This document shows, in pieces, positions 10,856 through 33,100 of a stretch of 64,000 bases of DNA. The stretch's first letter is position 1. Each line of letters starts with the position of its first letter. Both the position numbers and the translations under genes were made by a program. Under the pieces are notes generated by a model. The model was not told the DNA's origin and made no database searches. It was given only the letters and a program-made list of their open reading frames with translations. This DNA is from Candidatus Nanoarchaeia archaeon (GTDB lineage: Archaea > Nanobdellota > Nanobdellia > Woesearchaeales > JACPBV01), in NCBI GenBank assembly GCA_028279655.1, contig JANQNH010000001.1, forward strand, positions 17,484-81,483, written 5' to 3'.

Positions 10856-13054
10856 TTATTCCATTGGTACCTGGGACCATAGGGTCCAGTCATTGCTTGG
10901 AGCATAGGATCCAAATACAAAATAAGGGGGTTGGTTCTGACCGAAGTAGGAGTATTGTACCTGGCCCCATGTCTGAGGCACTCTGGCTCCACCTCCTCCA
11001 ACGCCATATATCGGGGAGCCCATGTAACGCCAGGTTTTCATCAATCCATGGAAATCCGACAGGTCAGTGGAGGCGTCTGCTCCTGGCTCAACTGTTAAAG
11101 CTTTATCATATCCATACTTGGACAATATGTTCATAACCTCTTTTAGGGGGGCATTCCCCTGTCCTGGGGCAAGATGGTCATCCTGAAAGCCGAAGTTGTC
11201 TGACATGTGCACATTTCCAATGTAACCTCCCTTTGCAAGCTTATCGAATTCCTGAACATACCATTTTTTAAAGTCCTTATCTGCTTCTTCTATGGTCTGG
11301 CCTGGCTTAACCTGCCAGAATTTTCTCCAAACGTTTGCATGTCCTGTGTCAAAGGTAGCCTTTATGTGCTTCTCTGCCAATTTCTCAGCCTGTTCCTTGG
11401 ACATCCCTTTTTGATAGTATAGGTTATCTGTAGGGCCCCAGTCCTTTATCTTTGTTCCTTCTTGCCAAGCTCCATGTGTTATCTTTTTTTCAGTGAGGAA
11501 TCTGACCATCTGCTTTCTTGCCTGGTCTATAACAAACTTCAGTTCCTGAGGATGGCCACCAAAGCGTTCTGGGAATATGTTTTCTATTGCAAGGAAGACA
11601 GGATTGTTGTCATCCTTGGATCTTTGCCAGGTCCTGATCCCTGCTTCGGCATATAGCCTTGCGATGTGCCTTTTGAATCTTTTCACAGGGGTAACGATAT
11701 GTTTTTTTGTTTCTAAGGTGTCTTCTGCCTGCTGCTCCTGGGAGGCAGATGATTGCCGTGAATAATCGATTCTTGCCCTCATCTCTTCTATTTTACCATC
11801 TATTATTTCAAGGGGGTTTTTTGTATCCGGAGTAAGGATCTCCTGGGCGTGCCTCCATAAAGATGTATCCTGCTTCATTATCTTCCATTTCTCTTCTGGT
11901 GGAACGTCTTTGTCGAGTTTTTCATAGAACTTTCTTACTTCCTTAAGTTTTTCAAGTACTTCGATCTCTTCCTTTGCAGTTTGACCAAACTGACCTGCCC
12001 ACCCTCTAGAATGTCCTTCGTTGGTCTCTAAAGTAGCATGTATGAAAGCTTCGTCTGGATGGACCTCTCCTTCGTAATAGAACTCAGGATCGTCATACCA
12101 CTCCTTTCCTGTAAGGGCTTTCCAATGTTGTTTGTTCCATTCTGTATGCTCTACTGCTTCCTCTCTGAAATAGTCAAAATCATGATACTCAACCTTAAAT
12201 CTTTGTGCTTCAGGATCATATTGAGGGACTCTTCCATATTTTGCGTCATAGGGATTAATAATCTTATTCCCCTCATAATCTATATAATCTCCTTTTTTTA
12301 TCTTTGTTGGCTTTCCTTTCAGATGTTCAAATTCCGGGTCACTCTTCCCCTGGTATTCACCATCATAATCATGGTCTGCTCTCCTCCATTTAGGTACTGA
12401 TACGAAGCGATCTTTCTGGACTGTCTCCATCTTCTGAGAGGTCCTGTCGTCTAGAAGAACGAAGTTTGCATCTGCCTCCTGTGAGTGCCTTTCCTTGAAC
12501 ATCAACCTTCCATTCTCATCATAAGCAAGGTTCTTTTTCATCAATGGATCATCTAAGGTCATGTCTGTCATAGGCCTTTCCCACTCTCCTGTGTGTACAA
12601 CGACAGATCCTCCGCCGGCAGTGTCTGCTGCAAAGTCAACTGCCCTTCTTATCTCCTGTAGGTTCTGGCTTGCATTGTTGACAGAGAAGTTCCCTCTCTG
12701 GTCAGAGCCCATCATGCCCATTGTGAATGCCGAGTGTGTCGTGAGCTTGATCTCGTTGATGTTGGCCATCTCTCTTATGGCCTGCCTTTGGTCTTCACCA
12801 TAGACTCCCGGGGTTTGTGCGTTTCTCTGGGAGCCCCCTGCCTGTGGGAACTGTATCTCTATAGAGCCAACCCCCATCCTTATCTTAGAGTATAATCCTG
12901 CTACATTCTGCGCTGCTATCCCCATAGGGACACTCAGTCCTATGTCTTTTATGCTAAAACCAGGAGAATCTGTTTTTTCCTGGCCATACATCTCAGGATC
13001 CATGGAATTAGCATAATCTACCATTGGATGGTGGGTGTAGTATCTGAATTCCAT
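10856..13054 (-). CDS. Xylose-isomerase-like (AP endonuclease 2 family) TIM-barrel protein with a highly charged insertion of about 330 aa and a Gly-rich C-terminal tail
   Basis: ATFDTGHANVW and NVHMSDNFGFQDDHLAPGQGNAPLKEVMNILSKYGYDKALTVEPG resemble the HxHDN...PGxG..D metal-site blocks of sugar-phosphate isomerase/epimerase TIM barrels. The long D/E/K-rich middle is not part of the canonical fold. Confidence 0.5.
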   Translation of the reverse strand: MEFRYYTHHPMVDYANSMDPEMYGQEKTDSPGFSIKDIGLSVPMGIAAQNVAGLYSKIRMGVGSIEIQFPQAGGSQRNAQTPGVYGEDQRQAIREMANINEIKLTTHSAFTMGMMGSDQRGNFSVNNASQNLQEIRRAVDFAADTAGGGSVVVHTGEWERPMTDMTLDDPLMKKNLAYDENGRLMFKERHSQEADANFVLLDDRTSQKMETVQKDRFVSVPKWRRADHDYDGEYQGKSDPEFEHLKGKPTKIKKGDYIDYEGNKIINPYDAKYGRVPQYDPEAQRFKVEYHDFDYFREEAVEHTEWNKQHWKALTGKEWYDDPEFYYEGEVHPDEAFIHATLETNEGHSRGWAGQFGQTAKEEIEVLEKLKEVRKFYEKLDKDVPPEEKWKIMKQDTSLWRHAQEILTPDTKNPLEIIDGKIEEMRARIDYSRQSSASQEQQAEDTLETKKHIVTPVKRFKRHIARLYAEAGIRTWQRSKDDNNPVFLAIENIFPERFGGHPQELKFVIDQARKQMVRFLTEKKITHGAWQEGTKIKDWGPTDNLYYQKGMSKEQAEKLAEKHIKATFDTGHANVWRKFWQVKPGQTIEEADKDFKKWYVQEFDKLAKGGYIGNVHMSDNFGFQDDHLAPGQGNAPLKEVMNILSKYGYDKALTVEPGADASTDLSDFHGLMKTWRYMGSPIYGVGGGGARVPQTWGQVQYSYFGQNQPPYFVFGSYAPSNDWTLWSQVPME

Positions 13055-25239: not shown

Positions 25240-25539
25240 ATGGGTTGGCAAAAAATAGAAACATTTATATATCAGATGGTATCTATTGGTATCATGAATA
25301 CGCAAATTAATCTAAGAATGCCACAAAAATTGCTTAGTTCAGTTAAATCTTACAGTGATGAGCATGGATATGGTTCAGTACAAGATTTTATTAAGGAAAC
25401 AGTTAGGGAGAAACTATTTGATGAGCCTGAGATAAGTAAAGAAGAATTGGCACTTGTAAAAAAACTTGCAGAAGTTACTGAAAAGAAGAAACTATATGGA
25501 ACTGAGAAACAATTATTTGAGAAACTTAGGAGAAGATAG
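25240..25539 (+). CDS. Ribbon-helix-helix (CopG-like) antitoxin. True start may be the internal Met at 25294.
   Basis: MNTQINLRMPQKLLSSVKSY...FIKETVREKL, with an RHH beta-strand followed by helices. Confidence 0.55.
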   Translation: MGWQKIETFIYQMVSIGIMNTQINLRMPQKLLSSVKSYSDEHGYGSVQDFIKETVREKLFDEPEISKEELALVKKLAEVTEKKKLYGTEKQLFEKLRRR

Positions 25540-25541
25540 TA

Positions 25542-25838
25542 ATGGAATATGAAATTATTCCATCTCAGTTTTTTCTGGAGCAGATTGATGAACTCAGTGA
25601 TGAAGCTGCAAAGTTAATTGAAGATAAGTTACGTTTAGCAAAAATAAATCCCTTTAGATTTAAACGTATTGAAGGATACAACCTATTCCTTTTTAGAATT
25701 AGATTTGAAGATGAAAGAAAGGAAAAACGTGTAGTATATCTTGTTGATAAACCAAAGGTGAAAGTTCTCTGTATTCTGGATAGAAGTAGCGAATATAAAA
25801 AACTTAGAAAGTTCTTAAAAAGACATGGATATCTATGA
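25542..25838 (+). CDS. RelE/ParE-family toxin
   Basis: YEIIPSQFFLEQIDELSDEAAKLIEDKLRLAKINPFRFKRIEGYNLFLFRIRFEDERKEKRVVYLVD...KVLCILDR. 2-nt gap after the RHH gene. Confidence 0.7.
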   Translation: MEYEIIPSQFFLEQIDELSDEAAKLIEDKLRLAKINPFRFKRIEGYNLFLFRIRFEDERKEKRVVYLVDKPKVKVLCILDRSSEYKKLRKFLKRHGYL

Positions 25839-25969
25839 TTTTTTTTCAATCCCATATAGCGCTAATTCCTGATTGAATATCACCTCAATATGCTAACTTT
25901 TTTTATCATCTGAAATACAATTCCTGATTTAGAGAAAACTTTAAATACTACTGTTATCAGGTTACAGGT

Positions 25970-26248
25970 ATGGTAAACTTAACCAGGAAGCCAAACATCT
26001 TTGAGTCAATACTTTTGATAATAGGTGTGGTGTTGATAGTTCTGGGATATGTTGTTATATACAGGATGTATGCTGTTGAGGGGTTTCTTTCCTGGGCTTT
26101 GTTGCAGACCTTGTTCCTGTGGATACTGATGATCCTGCTGGTTATATTGGCTGCTGTCAATGAGAACATGAAAGAGGAACTGAAGATAATGATAAGCAAC
26201 CAGGCTGAAGAGCTAAAGTTACTAAGGAAGGATCTTAAGAGGAAGTAA
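25970..26248 (+). CDS. Small membrane protein with C-terminal coiled coil
   Basis: Two TM helices. Confidence 0.35.
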   Translation: MVNLTRKPNIFESILLIIGVVLIVLGYVVIYRMYAVEGFLSWALLQTLFLWILMILLVILAAVNENMKEELKIMISNQAEELKLLRKDLKRK

Positions 26249-26451
26249 GTTTGTTCTTAACTATTCTAATCAATCCGTACATATTGCTTAAGGAACAGTA
26301 TACTCTAGACTAGAAATGTTTATATAAATATGTAAGTTATTCCATATTAAAGGCATAGAATATTGTTGTAAAAAAATAAATACAATATCCGACCATTAAT
26401 TAGTGATAAAATAACTTTAAATATATAATTCCTCAGCCGGAGTGTATTGAG

Positions 26452-26682
26452 TTGGCGAATATGGACAGTTCAAAAATTGCAAAGGAAGACCTAAATGAGG
26501 TAGCTTTTTCTAAATTAGACTTAAAAAAACATGCTGGGGAGTGTATTGCTATGGTAAATGGTAAGGTAGTCATTACAGAGAAAGATGCTACAAAAGCTAT
26601 GAAGAAGGTTGTTGCACTGAGTGAAAAAAACCAAGTAGCATTGATATGTATACCAAGTTCAAAGACTACTATGTGTATCTAA
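26452..26682 (+). CDS. DUF5678-like small protein (partner of the downstream aspartic protease)
   Basis: HAGECIAMVNGKVVITEKDATKAMKKV. Confidence 0.35.
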   Translation: MANMDSSKIAKEDLNEVAFSKLDLKKHAGECIAMVNGKVVITEKDATKAMKKVVALSEKNQVALICIPSSKTTMCI

Positions 26683-26684
26683 AA

Positions 26685-27134
26685 ATGTTAGATTATTCTA
26701 AGAAAGAACCAATTGTCTTCCCTTACAAGCTTTGTGAGATTACTACAAAAAATGGAAAGGAAAAAGTTCTTAGACCAATCGCCTTAATAAAGATTGGTAA
26801 GAAAAAAATTCAAATGGCTGGCCTTATAGATTCTGGATCAGATAAAACTGTCTCCTATGCTTATCCTTTTGGAAAATTGCTTGGTGTTTTGGATGATATT
26901 GAAGGTGAACCTGAGTCAATTGGTGGTTTATTCAGTAAGGGATCAGCTTGGCCTTGCCATACGGATTTGTGGATAGGGCAGTATAGATTGAATGTTCCAG
27001 TTTACTGGCTTACTACACCCTATGATCCTAAGGAATGCAACTATAATCTAATACTCGGTAGGAAGATAATATTCAATAATTTTGATGTAGTGTTTTGTGA
27101 GAGTGAAGGAAAGGTCTACTTCTATAAAAAATAG
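26685..27134 (+). CDS. Retropepsin-like (clan AA) aspartic peptidase
   Basis: Catalytic AGLIDSGSD (hydrophobic-D-S-G-S) and C-terminal LILGRKII (ILGR). Start taken at the Met directly after the upstream stop. Confidence 0.55.
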   Translation: MLDYSKKEPIVFPYKLCEITTKNGKEKVLRPIALIKIGKKKIQMAGLIDSGSDKTVSYAYPFGKLLGVLDDIEGEPESIGGLFSKGSAWPCHTDLWIGQYRLNVPVYWLTTPYDPKECNYNLILGRKIIFNNFDVVFCESEGKVYFYKK

Positions 27135-27144
27135 AATCTGTATG

Positions 27145-27179
27145 CTTAATATGTTTATTGAATCTACATATTAAGTTTT
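27145..27179 (+). terminator. Hairpin plus T-tract after the protease gene
   Basis: cttaatatg...catattaag 9-bp stem followed by ttttc. Confidence 0.3.
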
Positions 27180-27231
27180 CTTGTGCTGTTAAGTTAGCGT
27201 CACCTAGTCATCCTACTCTGAGCTTTAAGGT

Positions 27232-28224
27232 TTGTTGAATACAATCTTAAACGAGGTGAAAGAAATGGAAAGATATTTATATATAAAAACAATCTATGAG
27301 GATTATATGGAAAAAACTCGTTTCTATTTCCACGATTTACAGATAAAAGATATTAATAATGATAAAATAATTGAATTATTTGGGGAAATAGCCAAAGAAA
27401 CTGGTGAAGAAGATAAGCCAAGAACTTATATTGAGATAGATTCATCAAAATTACATATTCAAATTGTTAAAAAAGAACATGTGGATAAAGAGATATTTTT
27501 TTATGGAAAACTTATTCAATCTCACAAAACAGCAGATTTTAAGGAGGAAAAACAGGGAGAATTAATAGAGATTGACCTTGATGAAGATTCGGGAATATGC
27601 CAACCTCAACGAGGGATTATTTATTTTGTATTGTACCTAAATGAAGAAAAAAATGAAAGAATACTAATTTTAGAAGATGTCCCATTTGCATTAAATATTG
27701 GGGGTTTTATAAAATATCTGGTAAATAAATTGGGTATTGGTCAAGAGGACATAACAACAAAACAAAAATTGGGCAGGGATATAATTTCAATCATCAATGC
27801 AACTGGAGAAAGCCAGATGATTTTGGCTAAATTAAGATTTAAGAAAAACATTAGTATTGATGATGTAAAGAGAATCGGTATAGTTGAAGAAGCAATGGAG
27901 AAATTAAAAGAAAAGGATTTGGATTGTGAACTAATAATTAGATGGTCAAAAAAGAAAACAGAGAAATTAAAAGATTTTGTAAATAAATTCTTTAAAATAG
28001 GTAACATATCGGAACTTTCAACAGTAGACTATGGTAGTTTCTTAAGAACATTACAGTTTAAGATTGATAATGTGGCTCATGATAAGATAAATATGAAGGA
28101 TGATATAATAAAATATGCTCCACCAGAAAACAAAGAATATTATTTTGAACACGAAGATGAACTATATAATTCAGTTAAAGCTGATTTTGTACAAAAATAT
28201 GCTGATGGAAAATTAAATGGATAA
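27232..28224 (+). CDS. Hypothetical cytosolic protein (330 aa). First gene of a two-gene cassette.
   Basis: ORF with K/E-rich composition, no recognisable motif. Confidence 0.5.
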   Translation: MLNTILNEVKEMERYLYIKTIYEDYMEKTRFYFHDLQIKDINNDKIIELFGEIAKETGEEDKPRTYIEIDSSKLHIQIVKKEHVDKEIFFYGKLIQSHKTADFKEEKQGELIEIDLDEDSGICQPQRGIIYFVLYLNEEKNERILILEDVPFALNIGGFIKYLVNKLGIGQEDITTKQKLGRDIISIINATGESQMILAKLRFKKNISIDDVKRIGIVEEAMEKLKEKDLDCELIIRWSKKKTEKLKDFVNKFFKIGNISELSTVDYGSFLRTLQFKIDNVAHDKINMKDDIIKYAPPENKEYYFEHEDELYNSVKADFVQKYADGKLNG

Positions 28225-28708
28225 TCAAATGAACATTAAAAAAAATTCTTTATTGTGGGATACTATTGCGGTTTTTGTCATATTTTTGCCCATTACTTTT
28301 GTCTTACTTTTCAATTTTCCTAAATTTGTTATGAATCTAGATAATTTCACAGAAATTTTAGTTGGTTTATTTGGGACTTTATTGGGATTTATACTAACAG
28401 CAGTCACTATCCTTTTTATGTTTGATATAGACAAAAGCGAGATACTAAAGAAAATAAAAGATGCAGGATTATATAGCCAAATATTTGAAAGGTTTATTAG
28501 CACAATTGTAATTACTTTTATTTCATTGATTGCGGTATTATTTTATTATTTCTTATCAAAACTAACAGGGAATATTAGGATTGTAGATATTTTAATTTTT
28601 TATCTTTGCACATTAGTTCTAGTTAGAGTGTATCGGGTATTGAGAATTTTGTATTTAATCTATGGTATTATTAAACCTAATCCAACTCCACCAACCCAAC
28701 ATGGCTAA
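28217..28708 (+). CDS. Small four-TM membrane protein. 8-nt overlap with the upstream gene.
   Basis: VIFLPITFVLLF, LVGLFGTLLGFILTAVTILFMF and two more helices. Confidence 0.5.
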   Translation: MDNQMNIKKNSLLWDTIAVFVIFLPITFVLLFNFPKFVMNLDNFTEILVGLFGTLLGFILTAVTILFMFDIDKSEILKKIKDAGLYSQIFERFISTIVITFISLIAVLFYYFLSKLTGNIRIVDILIFYLCTLVLVRVYRVLRILYLIYGIIKPNPTPPTQHG

Positions 28709-29780
28709 CAGTAAGTAAAAAATATATGCCTGATTTCTCAACAAAAGAATATAAAATGAATTAATTAGAAGCTAACTTAATCAACCCCAACCACCTATTA
28801 ACTCCTGTCTCTAACTTTAATCCTGCTAACTCACAAGGCACCACTCCTGTTGTAGTGTGTGCCTCAATAAAGTTATGCTGTAAGATAATCCCTGCCATAA
28901 GAATAGGAGCAGACCAAAGAGCCTTTAAGCCACGAAAATCATCTACCCTATCTTTTATCTTTGAGAAAACAGTTTCAATCCTAACGTTATGCTTCCCTGT
29001 CTTTTGAACATTGTTTATCCTATGTTCTACAAGCATTCGTTTACTTCCGCTTATGTTTCGTTTTCCCTTACAACGGACAGAGGCAAAGACCTTTTTCATA
29101 GCTTTTGGATAGAATTGTGCGGCGTCAGTTTGGATATATTTAGGAAGTCCGTTTTTTGCTGTTTTCCTTAGAAAATCCACAGCGTCTTTTGTGTTTTGTG
29201 ATTTTGGGCTGTATAGTGTTGCATTAATATATCTTGTGTCCCAATCAACAGAACACCAGAATATATCTCCACCTTTCCTTGTTGGTGTACATCCTCTAGG
29301 AATATCTGTCTCGTCTGCATAGACCTTACCTGATAAGTTTAAGGGCAGAGTATCGACATACTTTTGAACCTTTAAAACATATTTTCTACACCAATCAAGA
29401 ACAGAAACGTGAGAGGCGTTATGCTCCCAATGTCTCCTAAAATGGTTTCTTACCTTTCTACTTGAAAGGTTAGAGAAATATAAGTCAATAGCAGAGGTTA
29501 TCTTTTTTTCATTATTTCTCATTCGGTAAAAGCCATCATCATTAGTAAAATATTTATTACAAGCATTGCATTTATACTTTTGTATTCTTCCCCTGTTCTC
29601 TGTCTTACGAAAGCCCTTCTTTATATAATCGCTTTCTCCACAATGAACGCATTTTATTTTTTTCATAGTAATATAGTAGGTACCGAAAGTATATAAATAC
29701 TTCGGTACCGAAATAATACTGTCATAATGTATATAATGGGGTACCGAAAAGCTTATAAAGGAGTAGGTACCTATTATTCC
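28709..29780. mobile_element. Putative IS element. Boundaries uncertain. The left flank carries three GGTACCGAA(A) repeats and an imperfect palindrome.
   Basis: ggtaccgaa at 29679, 29704 and 29740. Hairpin aggtaccgaaagtatataaatacttcggtacc at 29678-29709. Terminal inverted repeats at the other end not found by eye. Confidence 0.35.
28761..29666 (-). CDS. tnp: DDE transposase with N-terminal zinc ribbon (IS1595- or IS6-like)
   Basis: CVHCGESDY...YKCNACNKYF zinc ribbon. Acidic residues YADETD and IQTDAAQFY. Size about 300 aa. Confidence 0.65.
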   Translation of the reverse strand: MKKIKCVHCGESDYIKKGFRKTENRGRIQKYKCNACNKYFTNDDGFYRMRNNEKKITSAIDLYFSNLSSRKVRNHFRRHWEHNASHVSVLDWCRKYVLKVQKYVDTLPLNLSGKVYADETDIPRGCTPTRKGGDIFWCSVDWDTRYINATLYSPKSQNTKDAVDFLRKTAKNGLPKYIQTDAAQFYPKAMKKVFASVRCKGKRNISGSKRMLVEHRINNVQKTGKHNVRIETVFSKIKDRVDDFRGLKALWSAPILMAGIILQHNFIEAHTTTGVVPCELAGLKLETGVNRWLGLIKLASN

Positions 29781-29782
29781 CT

Positions 29783-29944
29783 ATGTATCTACAAAAACAA
29801 CTTTCTAAGAAGATTGGTGATAAGGAGTATGCTAAATATGTTATAGTAGTGCCACCTAAACTTATTGATAAACTAAAGTGGAAAGGTGGTGAGGAATTGG
29901 AAGCTGAGGTTAAAGGGGATAAACTTGTCATCGAGAAAGATTAA
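29783..29944 (+). CDS. AbrB/SpoVT-like swapped-hairpin small protein (53 aa)
   Basis: MYLQKQLSKKIGDKEYAKYVIVVPPKLIDKLKWKGGEELEAEVKGDKLVIEKD. Confidence 0.5.
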   Translation: MYLQKQLSKKIGDKEYAKYVIVVPPKLIDKLKWKGGEELEAEVKGDKLVIEKD

Positions 29945-29967
29945 TACTATAAATATAAAAAGAAAAG

Positions 29968-30152
29968 CAATGCCAGAGAATTGCGTAAATAAATTGATAA
30001 AAGAGATTCCAAATTTAACAGATAGGGAACTTTTAGAAGTTATATTTACTAACTCCATAAAAGGAGATTATGTAAAAGCTAAGTATCAAGGAGAGGAATA
30101 TTTTAACGATTTATTCTCCTATTTTGAAGAACTAAAGAAACGAAGAAAATAA
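29968..30152 (+). CDS. Small hypothetical protein (61 aa), downstream partner of the AbrB-like gene
   Basis: MPENCVNKLIKEIPNLTDRELLEVIFTNSIKGDYVKAKYQGEEYFNDLFSYFEELKKRRK. The 88-aa ORF-track start at 29886 overlaps the AbrB-like gene and was rejected. Confidence 0.35.
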
Positions 30153-30169
30153 TTTTTTTATTCTATTAG

Positions 30170-33100
30170 GTGACGTTTACTTTACAGCTCAAGTTTTCTA
30201 AAGATTTATATATTCTAGAGTATTCCTCTATAGTAGTTAAAATGTATTGGGGGGCTTGGAAGGTTGTTTTGTATGTATTCTTATGGATAGTCCTATGTGG
30301 TTTTGTATCTGCTGTGAATGTTGAGATATATGATTGTGATGATTTGCAGAATATGAACCAGAACCTAAGCGGAAGCTACGAACTAGCTAATGATATAGAT
30401 TGCTCAGCAACAAGAACATGGGGTGAGGGGAAAGGCTTTAATCCTATCGGTAATCTTTCAGAAAGGTTTACTGGTTATTTTGATGGAAAAAATCATCTAA
30501 TCACCGGGTTATATATGAATAGAAGCGAAAGTTATATTGGGTTATTTGGATATGTCCAACATGCAACAATAAAGAATGTTGGTTTTATTGATGTTGCGAT
30601 CTATGCAGACCCGAGTTCGGGTGATGATATCGGGGCATTGATCGGTCGTGCTGAATGGGTAAATGTTACTAACTCCTATTCTTCTGGTCTTGTAAAAGGA
30701 AGAAGCAATGTAGGAGGTTTGATTGGTTCCCTGTATGATTATGAAGTAAGAAATTCTCACTCTAATGCAACTGTTATTGGGTCATATATGTATGTTGGTG
30801 GGTTGGTAGGTTCATTTACAGGAAGCATCATTGATTCTTATGCTATAGGAACCGTAGATTCACCATATTATGCTGCTGGTCTGATCGGAAAGGCAGGAAA
30901 AGGAAATTCTGGAAATAATCTAGTGTATAATTGCTCTGCTGCAGGTGATGTATCTAGAAGATACTATAATTGCAGCCATCATTGTGGTGGTTTGATAGGA
31001 ACTAGCGAAGAGATCATGGTTGAGAAATCCTATGCAACAGGGGATGTGAATGCTAAGCCTGATCAGGCCTATATGGGCGGTCTAATCGCTCTTGCATCTA
31101 AGACCAACATATCTCAGTCCTATGCAATAGGTGATGTTATTGGTGACTCTTTCGTTGGAGGTTTGGTTGGAAGCCTCCAAGGGAGTTATGCTAATGAAAC
31201 CCTTAAGGATTCTTATGCAACCGGTAATATATATACTACTGGAGGAAACGGCCTTGTAGGCGGCCTTGTGGGGCAACTCCATAACACTAATGTGATCAAT
31301 TCTTATGCCACTGGAACAGTAAATGCTAGAAGTGGGGGTGTAGGCGGCCTCATCGGTACTATCAGCAACTATTCAGTGCAACCTGTGTTGATAAACTCGT
31401 ATTCTACTGGATATGTTGGCGGTGATGATGTTGGAGGGTTGATAGGAAGGGTTGACAGCAATTTCAGCAGAATTACTAACGTTTATTATTATGGTAATGT
31501 AAGTGATTGCTGCGGTCTAGGGTCATGTATTGATTGTACTAGGGAAGTATCATCTGATGTTTTTTACGGTAATGAACATGATGTTTATGTTTTATCACCT
31601 TTATGGGATTTTATTCATATATGGCAGAACCATTCAGATGATTACCCTACGTTGAGGTTGGAAAAGCCATTGGATGTTGACTCTTTATTAGAGAAATATG
31701 CTCCTGTTCTTTATCTCCATCCAGACGAAGAGTTTTTCCCTAAGAGTATTTATAGTATGCTGAATGAGAGCGATCTTATGCTTGGTAATAGGTCCATTGA
31801 TGTTAGCAGGCCTGTTTCTCAAGATAATCTGGATGGAAAAGAAAACGGTTCCTATCTGGATATGCAGGATGCCAGTCCTGGCTTTTTCCCATCAGTTCCA
31901 AACTCAAGCAGGTTTGATAGGTATGAGAATACTGTATATGGCAGAGTGTTTGAGCCTGATGATGAGCACATCGTATTGCAGTATTGGTTCTTTTATCCTT
32001 ATAATCATTTTAGGGGAGGTCATGAAGGGGACTGGGAGATGATACAGATAATATTAAACAAAACCGATGAAAAACCATTAACATCTACTTATTCCTATCA
32101 TTATGATGGAAGAACATATAATTGGAGTGATATAAATAAGGTTGATTCTACACATCCAAAGGTTTTTGTCGCAGAGGGTGGGCATGCGAGTTATAAAGAT
32201 CCAGTAGTTATCTGGCTTCCAGGATACCTTTTACTTGAGTCAGTTAGTGAAGAGAACAATAGTATAGTGTATTATTGCAATAATACAGATACATCCCAGT
32301 TTGTTAATAATCGTTCAACACAATATAGATTAAATTCTATTCTGAATGCTACCGAATGGGCGCATTTTAATGGTAGGTGGGGAGAATCAAAAAATAAATC
32401 TTCTATATATAATGGTCCAAGCAGCCCTGCAAATCTTAGATACGGAAATCAAGCATTTAGATGGAACGATCCAATCGGCTTTGCAAATAATCCCTCCCCA
32501 GATTCAACCAGTGCAGCAACGGGAAGCCCTGTAAATCTTCATGCTTATGATTCACAAGGTAGGCATGTAGGTTTAAGTAGTTCAGGTGATATTGAAGCAG
32601 AGATTCCTGGCGTTTATATGTATATTCCTTCTGATGATGAAAAAGAGGTTATCGTTATATTAGATTCAGAAGACCTAACCTTTGAGATAGAAGCAACAGA
32701 CCAAGGAGAGTTTGATTTTTCATTGAATACTCAGAATGATGGTAACTATATCAATCTACAGTATGAAGATGTACAGATTAATAAGAATACTAGAGCAACA
32801 ATGCAATTTACCAATACCAATCCAAATTTTATTATGGGAATAGATGTCAATGGAGATGGTATAACAGATACTACCTTAAGTCCAAATAATGTAGAGATAT
32901 CTGGAAATTATTCAAATAATGAAACAGATTTTGATAATGACAGTATTGCAGACTCTATTGATAATTGTATAAACACATCTAATCCAGATCAAAGAGATTG
33001 GGATAATGATAGTGTAGGAGATGTTTGTGATGTTGAATCAATTAATATAACTTTAGTTCCGGGTTGGAATCTAATATCTATACCTTTAATTGCGAATAAT

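Follow-up and report, generated by a model that had tools for sequence, protein, structure and literature searches.

A putative RexAB-type gene pair carried as cargo by an IS6/IS240-like transposon of a DPANN-type archaeon

Introduction

RexAB phage exclusion has been under study since the work of Benzer on rII and its mechanism is not settled; to our knowledge the known RexAB relatives are few, all of them bacterial and prophage-borne. In lambda (reference entries Pfam PF15969 and PF15968, PDB 8TWQ) rexA lies upstream of rexB in the prophage immunity operon beside cI, and the two genes are separated by a gap of 15 nt. RexA, the sensor of this classic two-gene abortive-infection (Abi) system, has a split globular domain into which a dimerisation domain is inserted and is structurally related to RdgC, RexB is a four-transmembrane (four-TM) protein of ∼144 aa, and mis-expression of Rex leads to energetic defects (PMC11077077). 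Other Rex-like systems are those of mycobacteriophage Sbash (gp30/gp31) and Gordonia phage CarolAnn (PMC6426596, PMC6426606). Mutations in Sbash gp31's central cytoplasmic loop abolish defence, and a DUF4747 motif has been stated for both RexA and gp30 (PMC6426596). The P. putida pair PP_5643/PP_5644 was recognised only by remote RexA homology, its four-TM partner being undetectable (PMC12894663). Within the literature searched, Rex is not mentioned in the largest survey of archaeal defence, which reports that restriction-modification (RM) and CRISPR systems are under-represented in DPANN archaea.

The gene pair described here, A and B, lies in a 64,000-nucleotide stretch of an archaeal contig (the window). 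An initial annotation had placed the pair in an AT-rich island rich in toxin-antitoxin genes and insertion sequences (IS) and proposed it as a candidate novel archaeal defence or abortive-infection system. The comparisons presented below make it fairly probable that A and B instead belong to an archaeal mobile element as its two-component module of RexAB type for abortive infection or exclusion, a function assigned by analogy.

Results and Discussion

Organisation of the locus and conservation of the pair

The features of the locus, in coordinates of the window, are as follows.

27173..27181, no strand: left copy of the target-site duplication, 9 bp, AAGTTTTCT, identical to 30191-30199 and directly abutting the inverted-repeat arm
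27182..27206, plus strand: left inverted repeat (IR-L), TGTGCTGTTAAGTTAGCGTCACCTA, pairing with 30167-30190 at 20 of 24 bases
27265..28224, plus strand: gene A, RexA-like soluble protein, 319 aa from the probable start ATG 27265
28217..28708, plus strand: gene B, RexB-like four-TM membrane protein, 163 aa, from ORF, family and model
28761..29666, minus strand: transposase, IS6/IS240-like DDE type with N-terminal zinc ribbon, 301 aa, Pfam DDE_Tnp_IS240
29679..29779, no strand: intergenic region that separates the divergent transposase and MazE-like genes and contains GGTACC palindromes, four in all, of which three occur as GGTACCGAAA
29783..29944, plus strand: MazE/AbrB-type small DNA-binding protein, 53 aa, right-hand cargo, MazE_antitoxin PF04014
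29886..30152, plus strand: ORF of 88 aa (possibly 60 aa from an internal ATG), right-hand cargo, overlapping the MazE-like gene
30167..30190, minus strand: right inverted repeat (IR-R), pairing with IR-L
30191..30199, no strand: right copy of the target-site duplication, AAGTTTTCT, identical to the left copy

The full extent of ORF A is 27232..28224 (plus strand), and its alternative starts are TTG 27232, which gives 330 aa, and ATG 27307, which gives 305 aa and is the start placed in the NCBI record. Alignments of A homologues begin at 'ME.TRFYFHD', and the ∼12 residues upstream of this motif are variable. The overlap of A with B measures 8 nt (ATGGATAA), through which the translation of the two genes is probably coupled. 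That the two overlapping ORFs lack recognised domains, as first described, is borne out by searches of Pfam, NCBIfam, PADLOC and PHROGs, in which A has no match and B returns nothing but sub-threshold noise, and the other members of both families are likewise without a usable match. A tblastn search of 50,697 phage genomes with A and B also returns 0 matches.

A and B are nevertheless real, conserved genes. Among 1.84 billion representatives, A has relatives in 12 close clusters and in 20 clusters at 50% identity, and B in 6 clusters. Many residues are invariant in both families, with four given for the A family (F107, E123, G156 and K276, numbered from ATG 27307). In nine lineages, all of them metagenome contigs of DPANN-type archaeal or viral origin, A is followed by B and the two are always adjacent, confirming the membrane ORF as conserved; the 8-nt overlap is present in seven of the nine, and the remaining two have a gap of 2 or 4 nt. 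The neighbours of the pair include EcoRI-like RM, N6_N4 and N6 methyltransferases, GmrSD/HNH, a ResIII helicase with methyltransferase, Doc/Fic, MazE-like genes, transposases and toxin-antitoxin genes. These contexts are of mobile or defence type, and the housekeeping contexts that were sought among them were not found.

The surroundings in the window are as AT-rich as the initial annotation had indicated, with a GC content of 0.287-0.299 at 27-29 kb versus ∼0.40 over most of the window. With only one transposase nearby (28761..29666, minus strand), this part of the window is not rich in IS. What was taken for an island is a discrete transposon of 3.0 kb, and the RHH/RelE-like and retropepsin-like genes lie outside it. 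Among these outer genes, the RHH ORF matches DUF6290 weakly (E 7e-4) and the putative RelE ORF (25542..25838) has no Pfam match; the retropepsin pair consists of an ORF with a weak RVP match (E 0.044) and a partner assigned to DUF5678.

Predicted fold of A

Structure prediction, suggested in the initial annotation for both proteins, yields for A an AlphaFold model (pLDDT 66, pTM 0.58) for which the top two PDB matches in Foldseek are the lambda RexA chains 8twq_B (E 2.3e-5, probability 1.00) and 8twq_A (E 9.9e-5, probability 0.99), in alignments spanning ∼340 columns. Subsequent PDB matches have E 0.01 or worse, and TM-scores in this search are low. The order of elements in the model (N-terminal sheet with helices, inserted strand-and-helix domain, C-terminal strands, long helix) agrees with the split-domain topology of RexA and thus supports a RexA fold. 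A is thereby predicted to possess this fold, which comprises a globular beta-sheet domain in split form, a dimerisation domain inserted into it and a helix at the C-terminus. In BFVD, a library of viral protein structures, the list is led by five uncharacterised proteins from phages, 277-322 aa in size (E 4e-10 to 4e-7), and RdgC-annotated proteins, some of the weaker structural matches of A, rank next with E 6e-3 and 1.4e-2. RdgC differs from A in having no membrane partner and is not among the top 50 PDB matches of the model.

The resemblance does not extend to detectable sequence similarity. The RexA models Pfam PF15969 and PADLOC PDLC02339, which as a positive control recover lambda RexA at 1e-97 and 9e-110, are matched neither by A nor by any of 17 members of its family with E values up to 10, and DUF4747 is absent from the Pfam matches of all 17 members at the same limit. 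Alignment of the A family with RexA by hhalign gives scores of 13.7 and 14.8, and is at the null level both for a single sequence and for a four-sequence profile. Sequence-profile searches of the PDB with profiles A1, A4 and A2, the last representing the B family, return only noise: ANT(6), OTU domain and signal peptidase subunit 2.

Membrane topology of B

The description of B as a four-helix membrane protein is upheld by four hydrophobic segments, at residues ∼16-34, 47-65, 94-112 and 120-138, and by a model with four long helices (pLDDT 72.5). Members of the family are 147-163 aa in size and have four TM segments. The distribution of K+R residues (2-4 / 0-1 / 5 / 0-1 / 2-3) predicts an N-in/C-in layout, and lambda RexB computed likewise has the same layout with a basic central loop; in B this central loop is the best-conserved portion.

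Comparison of the B and RexB families by hhalign (profiles A2 and A5) gives a score of 31.0 (P 2.2e-4, probability 45%) in an alignment that covers TM1, TM2 and the 'KI[KR]..G' loop, relative to controls of 13.3 and 10.8 for reversed sequences and a maximum of 22.5 in 200 shuffles. The score falls to 22.5 and then to 16.3 once the B alignment is made more diverse, and the apparent sequence similarity of B to RexB is marginal and not robust. Of the specific RexB models, PF15968 matches none of nine B members and PADLOC PDLC02340 has no match for the window B or for family members P0017 and P0018.

PF01618 (MotA_ExbB) has weak sub-threshold matches in seven of the nine B members (best E 0.014). 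A MotA/ExbB-like identity for B or RexB was considered and rejected: the window B scores 12 bits against a gathering threshold of 22.9, and lambda RexB has no PF01618 match. An 'ExbB' annotation is present on some RexB records.

The best BFVD match of B is A0A8S5S8H0 and the sixth-ranked is A0A8S5PEF7; these proteins come from phages ctylc9 and ctgr818, which also encode two of the leading BFVD matches of A, A0A8S5S8L2 and A0A8S5PCY0, respectively. This co-occurrence bears on whether the RexA likeness could be a false positive of a mediocre model, A and B then being an unrelated pair of some other or new function, in defence or elsewhere, with a generic soluble plus four-TM layout. We consider such an origin unlikely. 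The absence of sequence-profile support for A, the low TM-scores, the unstable B-RexB signal and the weak MotA_ExbB matches of most B members are all consistent with it, but both RexA chains lead the PDB list by more than 100-fold in E-value, several full-length phage matches of A reach E 4e-7 or better, the domain order of A agrees with the published RexA topology, and the best A-like and B-like matches occur together in two phage genomes.

Comparison with described systems and proposed function

A-B resembles lambda RexAB in consisting of a soluble protein of ∼280-320 aa followed by a four-TM protein of ∼145-160 aa in the same gene order, in the predicted N-in/C-in topology of the membrane partner with its basic central loop, in being borne by a mobile element, and in that neither has an enzymatic motif. 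It differs in the lack of detectable sequence similarity for A and the marginal similarity for B, in the host (DPANN-type archaeal as opposed to enterobacterial), in the 8-nt overlap where lambda has a gap, and in its setting as transposon cargo near RM genes rather than in an immunity operon; a cI-like neighbour of A-B was not found, and the pair sits in chromosome and virus-like contigs. Similar features unite A-B with the P. putida, Sbash and CarolAnn systems, in all of which the sensor is seen only via remote or structural RexA similarity and the membrane partner is recognised by its four TM helices, not by sequence; moreover, the central loop important in the Sbash partner corresponds to the best-conserved part of B. 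Unlike A-B, those systems are bacterial and prophage-encoded with demonstrated phage exclusion, and Sbash gp30 has the DUF4747 motif that is lacking in the A family. The pair thus appears to be a very divergent RexAB-type pair and not a novel kind of system. The original proposal of a soluble sensor with a membrane effector in Abi or defence is supported in part, the fold of A being nearest to RexA and the function argued by analogy.

In a RexAB-type module, A would act in the cytosol and have a two-domain fold like that of RexA and RdgC; by analogy with RexA it may dimerise and bind DNA or a DNA-protein intermediate of an invading virus or other mobile element. A would then engage the basic central cytoplasmic loop of B, and B, having the size and topology of RexB, would by analogy dissipate the membrane potential, a depolarisation that would halt growth of the infected cell and so have an antiviral effect. 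Coupled translation across the overlap would fix the A:B ratio. If this reading is correct, a membrane-depolarising abortive-infection system exists in DPANN-type archaea. The divergent A-B family narrows what RexAB function must conserve, and the invariant residues of A together with the basic central loop of B are starting points for mutagenesis.

Boundaries of the transposon

The transposon that encloses A and B measures 3.0 kb (27182-30190); its inverted repeats are 24 nt long, its transposase is IS6/IS240-like, and its target site is duplicated over 9 bp. The window inverted repeat, otherwise reported as 27 nt at 85%, has a log-odds score of 28.3, compared with a mean of 17.5 (sd 1.7, maximum 25.0) in 200 shuffles, and the chance of a 9/9 duplication match is ∼8e-5 with small offsets allowed. 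The empty-site junction expected for the window transposon is ...CATATTAAGTTTTCTAAAGATTTA... When IR-L is aligned by hand with TACATTGTTACCTTA..GGTTGGT, the repeat found in related elements, 13 of 25 positions agree.

The transposase matches PF13610 (DDE_Tnp_IS240) with 40.4 bits versus a cut-off of 27; in NCBIfam it scores 25.4 bits for IS1 and only 56.8 for the IS6 equivalog, whose cut-off is 125, and it is therefore regarded as a distant IS240/IS6-type member. The element shares with the IS6/IS26 family a DDE transposase (IS240 above threshold) and terminal inverted repeats. The IS6 target duplication is typically 8 bp, whereas that of the window-type element is 9 bp, and further differences are the inverted repeats of 24-27 bp, the N-terminal zinc ribbon on the transposase, the presence of a small zinc-ribbon ORF and two cargo slots, and the unmet NCBIfam IS6 cut-off. 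A separate IS inserted beside B is ruled out as the source of the transposase because A, B and the transposase all lie between the inverted repeats and because in related loci L004, L010 and L017 the 3' ends of transposase and B overlap by 6-36 nt.

Related elements and variable cargo

A closely similar inverted repeat, with a core matching TACATTGTTACCTTANNGGTTGGT, is found in at least 110 metagenome loci and one viral contig, and homologues of the transposase hold the same position in L004, L010, L017 and ∼60 other inverted-repeat loci. L004 and L013 have inverted repeats of 24-27 nt, flanked on either side by GTTCTTGAT as a perfect 9-bp duplication; the repeats of L016 are perfect over 27 bp, and the left flanks of L016 and L017 differ. 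A small zinc-ribbon ORF is conserved beside the transposase of related elements, each of which has two cargo slots with passenger genes of up to ∼4 kb. Relatives of the window element carry RM systems (frequently), GmrSD or other two-gene cassettes, and A-B is one alternative among many.

A-B is present in only three of the 110 inverted-repeat loci; most elements that have this repeat and transposase do not carry the pair, and one related element is an IS without cargo whose slot measures 49 bp. In L007/L008 no transposase accompanies the pair, and in L016 the pair lies beside a deleted one. These findings rule out A-B as core transposon genes and identify the pair as cargo; in the window element it is an optional passenger of the left slot. 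They also make it very unlikely that A-B is a transposition or recombination accessory, with A a RexA/RdgC-like DNA-binding modulator and B its membrane anchor, even though RdgC-annotated recombination-associated proteins are among the structural matches of A and in most of its loci the pair adjoins a transposase belonging to one of two unrelated families.

The position of the pair is also relevant to its possible role as an addiction or stabilisation module, in which B would be a membrane toxin and A a cytosolic antitoxin or regulator acting in retention of the transposon and not in antiviral defence. Consistent with such a role, A-B lies just inside IR-L in three or more lineages that are divergent from one another (that of the window, L004/L016 and L066), the same slot between IR-L and transposase is occupied elsewhere by many small cassettes of two genes with the size of toxin-antitoxin pairs, the window element also carries a MazE-like gene, and the pair has stayed 100% identical in L016, which has lost the transposase. 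However, a 300-aa protein of RexA fold is atypical as an antitoxin, A is larger than B and lies upstream of it, and no toxin-antitoxin family is matched in Pfam, NCBIfam, PADLOC or PHROGs; we therefore judge addiction improbable as the alternative to a RexAB-type module. The two are not mutually exclusive, since mis-expressed Rex itself causes energetic defects (PMC11077077).

A wider reading of the RexAB-type module, which we advance only tentatively, is that this widespread archaeal IS6/IS240-like transposon family might serve as a two-slot shuttle for defence cassettes, with RexAB-like pairs carried between IR-L and the transposase and RM, GmrSD and MazE-like genes in the other slot; RexAB-type Abi could then be ancient and common to bacterial phages and archaeal mobile elements. 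Were this so, the many unannotated two-gene cassettes in the A-B slot would amount to a store of archaeal defence systems not yet described. Further cassettes carried by this element family are concrete candidates for new archaeal defence genes.

Among the A-B loci of DDE_Tnp_1 type, L001 has no convincing inverted repeat, and L005 has a 25-nt inverted repeat without target duplication; no RNA gene is detected at the L005 insertion site by Rfam or ARAGORN.

Right-hand cargo and intergenic region

The MazE-like protein of the window element matches PF04014 with E 4.1e-7 (30.3 bits versus a cut-off of 24.7). The overlapping 88-aa ORF has no Pfam match and may be the toxin partner of the MazE-like gene. 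The palindromes of the intergenic region upstream are evident in the sequence itself and also register as direct repeats D8 and D20; the region may be regulatory.

Two paired genes in an AT-rich region

The pair consists of a soluble-protein gene (A) and a membrane-protein gene (B) with four transmembrane (TM) segments:

27232..28224, + strand: A, 330 aa from a TTG start
28217..28708, + strand: B, 163 aa

Both reading frames are present as described in the initial annotation, with an 8-nt overlap (ATGGATAA). Translation of A probably begins at ATG 27265 (319 aa, the call in a second sample of the region) or ATG 27307 (305 aa, the NCBI call); alignments of A homologues begin at 'ME.TRFYFHD', and the ∼12 residues upstream are variable. 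The AT-richness reported earlier is borne out by a GC content of 0.29–0.30 at 27–29 kb, against ∼0.40 in most of the window. The lack of recognisable domains likewise holds, as searches of Pfam, NCBIfam, PADLOC and PHROGs gave no match for A and, for B, nothing beyond noise below threshold. B contains four hydrophobic segments, and its predicted model has four long helices.

Close relatives of A form 12 clusters of 53–62% identity among 5.8 billion proteins, and only 20 clusters at 50% identity among 1.84 billion representatives; B forms 6 clusters. The confident A matches are either ∼300-aa proteins with a single domain or shorter fragments, and alignments of both families contain many invariant positions. 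B directly follows A in every readable contig, in nine lineages (window/L023; L001-3/L006; L004/L013; L005; L007-9; L010-12; L014/15; L016-18; L066, where L-numbers denote other loci and L023 the second sample). Across these lineages identity falls to 29% for A and 36% for B, and the junction is an 8-nt overlap in seven and a gap of 2 or 4 nt in two. A and B are real genes and are always paired. They are surrounded by mobile or defence genes, among them EcoRI-like methylase and nuclease, N6_N4 and N6 methyltransferases, GmrSD/HNH, ResIII helicase with methyltransferase, Doc/Fic-like toxin, and transposases of two families. The initial annotation held that a housekeeping context or a non-conserved membrane reading frame would speak against a defence role; neither was found, since B is kept beside A in all nine lineages and the neighbours are of mobile or defence type.

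The window transposon and related elements

A 24-nt inverted repeat (27182–27206 and 30167–30190; 27 nt at 85% in the repeat search) encloses five genes, namely A, B, an 88-aa ORF and the following two:

28761..29666, − strand: IS6/IS240-like transposase
29783..29944: MazE/AbrB-type gene (PF04014, E 4e-7)

The repeat scores 28.3, compared with a mean of 17.5 and a maximum of 25.0 in 200 shuffles, and the 9-mer AAGTTTTCT abuts both arms; the chance of such a 9/9 target-duplication match is ∼8e-5. The intergenic stretch from which the transposase and the MazE-like gene diverge (29679–29779) contains four GGTACC palindromes, three as GGTACCGAAA, which could be operator sites; the matching region of loci L016 and L017 contains repeated TAGGTATATA motifs.

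Between the repeat TACATTGTTACCTTAGAGGTTGGT and its partner, L004 and L013 carry A, B, a transposase, a zinc-ribbon ORF (61 aa) and a restriction-modification (RM) pair of EcoRI-like type, and a perfect 9-bp duplication, GTTCTTGAT, flanks the element. The L004 transposon is inserted in the 3′ end of a 74-aa ORF, replacing its last residues (L004:7452-8011 and 12422-12450); this ORF is preceded by a gene for a Doc/Fic-like toxin (Pfam Fic, E 1.7e-4), and reconstruction of the empty site gives ...SQVLDEQITF*. Both ends of the L016 element have the same repeat as L004 and L013, 27 bp long and perfect; L016 is 100% identical to L017 inward from the exact outer repeat base and unrelated outside, indicating one element at different sites. 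L016 is a deletion derivative (1537-1641 vs L017:1588-2574) in which the loss of 874 bp lying between two 9-bp direct repeats (GAGTTCGTA) has removed most of the transposase; it keeps the last ∼33 transposase codons and an intact A-B pair 100% identical to that of L017.

A different transposase (DDE_Tnp_1 with SWIM finger) adjoins A-B in L001 and L005. In L005 (7442-7868 and 14276-14300), a 6.4-kb block lies between the enolase and ribosomal protein S2 genes; besides A, B and this transposase it contains a 173-aa ORF and an N6 methyltransferase fusion of 855 aa. The arms of a 25-nt inverted repeat (21/25 bases) stand on either side of the block, and no target duplication is visible. The left arm lies where an odd 136-aa 'ORF' ends, which may be non-protein; Rfam and ARAGORN detected no RNA gene there. 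L007 and L008 carry A-B without a transposase and with a type III-like RM neighbour. There (L007:3855-11656), A-B adjoins a papain-like peptidase (Peptidase_C1), past which lie a zinc-ribbon ORF, a 787-aa ResIII helicase, a 270-aa ORF, a 568-aa N6_N4 methylase, a metallo-beta-lactamase-fold protein and an MqsA-like antitoxin; the set resembles a type III-like RM or defence locus. A-B travels in the company of RM-type defence genes.

Scanning for the inverted-repeat core (24 nt, TACATTGTTACCTTANNGGTTGGT) yielded 109 metagenome stretches and one viral contig (L024-L133), in which paired copies bound elements of 0.97 kb to 5.1 kb (for example L029:1934-6553, L049:128-4213, L059:271-5190, L061:4249-9177, L069:8329-13434, L115:2863-6948 and L133:96-4160). 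Most of these loci encode an IS6/IS240-like transposase and a conserved ∼60-aa zinc-ribbon ORF, and the elements have two variable cargo slots. Slot 1, between the left repeat and the transposase 3′ end, ranges from 49 bp (bare IS) to 2 kb and holds many different cassettes, mostly of two unannotated genes and most without a Pfam match; annotated cargo includes an N6_N4 methylase with RAMA and an ATPase_2/DUF234 protein. Of the 110 loci, 31 encode methyltransferase homologues. A-B is present in no more than three, namely L053 (which lies on the contig of L017), L066 and L132, and because so few loci carry it and slot 1 contents vary, A-B is optional cargo, which rules it out as transposition machinery. 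A role as DNA-binding accessory of recombination or transposition is weakened on the same ground and appears very improbable; that A-B is an addiction module stabilising the transposon is somewhat less improbable, but still unlikely. The transposon family, with two slots of mostly unannotated cassettes, may be a more productive lead than A-B itself.

Predicted structures and comparison with RexAB

The AlphaFold2 model of A, built on a 12-sequence alignment, is of moderate confidence (pLDDT 66, pTM 0.58). From the N terminus it has a five-stranded sheet and two helices, then an inserted domain (3–4 strands, 4–5 helices) and finally C-terminal strands with a long helix. Foldseek against the PDB ranks first two chains (8TWQ) of RexA, from the lambda RexA/RexB exclusion (abortive-infection) pair, with E 2.3e-5 and 9.9e-5, probability 1.00 and 0.99, over ∼340 columns; all other matches are at E 0.01 or worse. 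Global TM-scores are low (0.26–0.30), a caveat, though expected for a hinged two-domain protein. Among predicted viral structures the top matches are five uncharacterised phage proteins (277–322 aa, E 4e-10 to 4e-7), followed by one 'exonuclease' and two RdgC-type 'recombination-associated' proteins; RdgC is a known structural relative of RexA (PMC11077077). The best and sixth-ranked viral matches of the B model (pLDDT 72.5) come from phages ctylc9 and ctgr818, also sources of A-model matches, indicating that A-like and B-like proteins co-occur in phage genomes too.

B (147–163 aa in the family) and lambda RexB (144 aa) share a computed layout of four TM segments, predicted N-in/C-in, with a basic central cytoplasmic loop; in B the K+R pattern is 2-4 / 0-1 / 5 / 0-1 / 2-3, from which this orientation is predicted. 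The central loop is the most conserved part of B ('DTDKN.TL.KIKKAGLY.QI.ERF'), and in the Rex-like Sbash system mutation of the central cytoplasmic loop of gp31 abolishes defence (PMC6426596). Support at the level of sequence is weak, which is a material caveat. Pfam and PADLOC RexA/RexB models recognise the lambda proteins but none of the archaeal A/B proteins, and A against RexA by hhalign is at null level. Alignments of B (9 sequences) and RexB (11 sequences) score 31.0 by hhalign (P 2.2e-4, probability 45%), over TM1, TM2 and the 'KI[KR]..G' motif, falling to 22.5 and then 16.3 with more diverse B sequences; reversed profiles score 13.3 and 10.8, and 200 local/global column shuffles have a mean of ∼13–14, sd 2.5 and maximum 22.5. 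A RexAB-type system of P. putida was recognised solely through RexA, its four-TM partner being undetectable (PMC12894663). That the RexA fold match is spurious, and A-B a pair of unknown kind, seems to us rather unlikely.

Slot 1 of another element (L059:331-1685) holds a 290-aa protein (+) beside an opposite-strand 161-aa four-TM protein resembling B (hhalign P 6.3e-5; 'IFGTLFGLLLTSYAILFG'). Although the 290-aa protein does not significantly match either A or RexA, all three contain a short motif (TSFEIIVKKSRKRD in the 290-aa protein, SLEIVIKPKFKRD in RexA and LDCELIIRWSKKK in A).

Proposed function

We favour, with some reserve, the reading of A-B as a RexAB-type abortive-infection or exclusion module. 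By analogy with lambda Rex, A would sense DNA or a DNA-protein intermediate of the invader and then engage the central loop of B, which would collapse the membrane potential, and translational coupling of A and B would set their stoichiometry. Directly shown are the anatomy and conservation of A-B, its resemblances in fold and topology, and its context; an antiviral effect is what lambda Rex would lead one to expect, and the mechanism of lambda Rex itself is still debated (PMC11077077). In the literature searched, RexAB and archaea appear together only in broad surveys and review articles, Rex is absent from the largest survey of archaeal defence, and existing defence-finder models (PADLOC) miss A-B. 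Relative to known RexAB, the putative module would be new in its archaeal host, its carriage by a transposon and its being undetectable by sequence.

Archaeal setting and neighbouring genes

The window encodes ThrRS with an archaea-specific editing domain, SRP54 and a DSHCT helicase, and is therefore archaeal; no above-threshold match to any Rfam family, tRNA and rRNA included, was found within it (1–64000). One relative is located in a Woesearchaeota MAG, and another beside proteasome, exosome, Rpb6, enolase and S2 genes.

Outside the transposon, 25240–27134 contains two more small gene pairs. One joins an RHH-like ORF (weak DUF6290 and CopG matches) to a 98-aa ORF lacking a Pfam match; in the other, a DUF5678 ORF overlaps a 162-aa ORF that weakly matches retropepsin (RVP, E 0.044). 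A 92-aa two-TM ORF separates them, and the arrangement recurs in the second sample. On the other side, a 1114-aa surface-protein ORF is listed from GTG 30170, overlapping the right inverted repeat and the target duplication (30167–30199); its start is probably ATG ∼30242 (MYWGAWKVV..., signal-peptide-like), which would place the transposon in the upstream region of the surface-protein gene.
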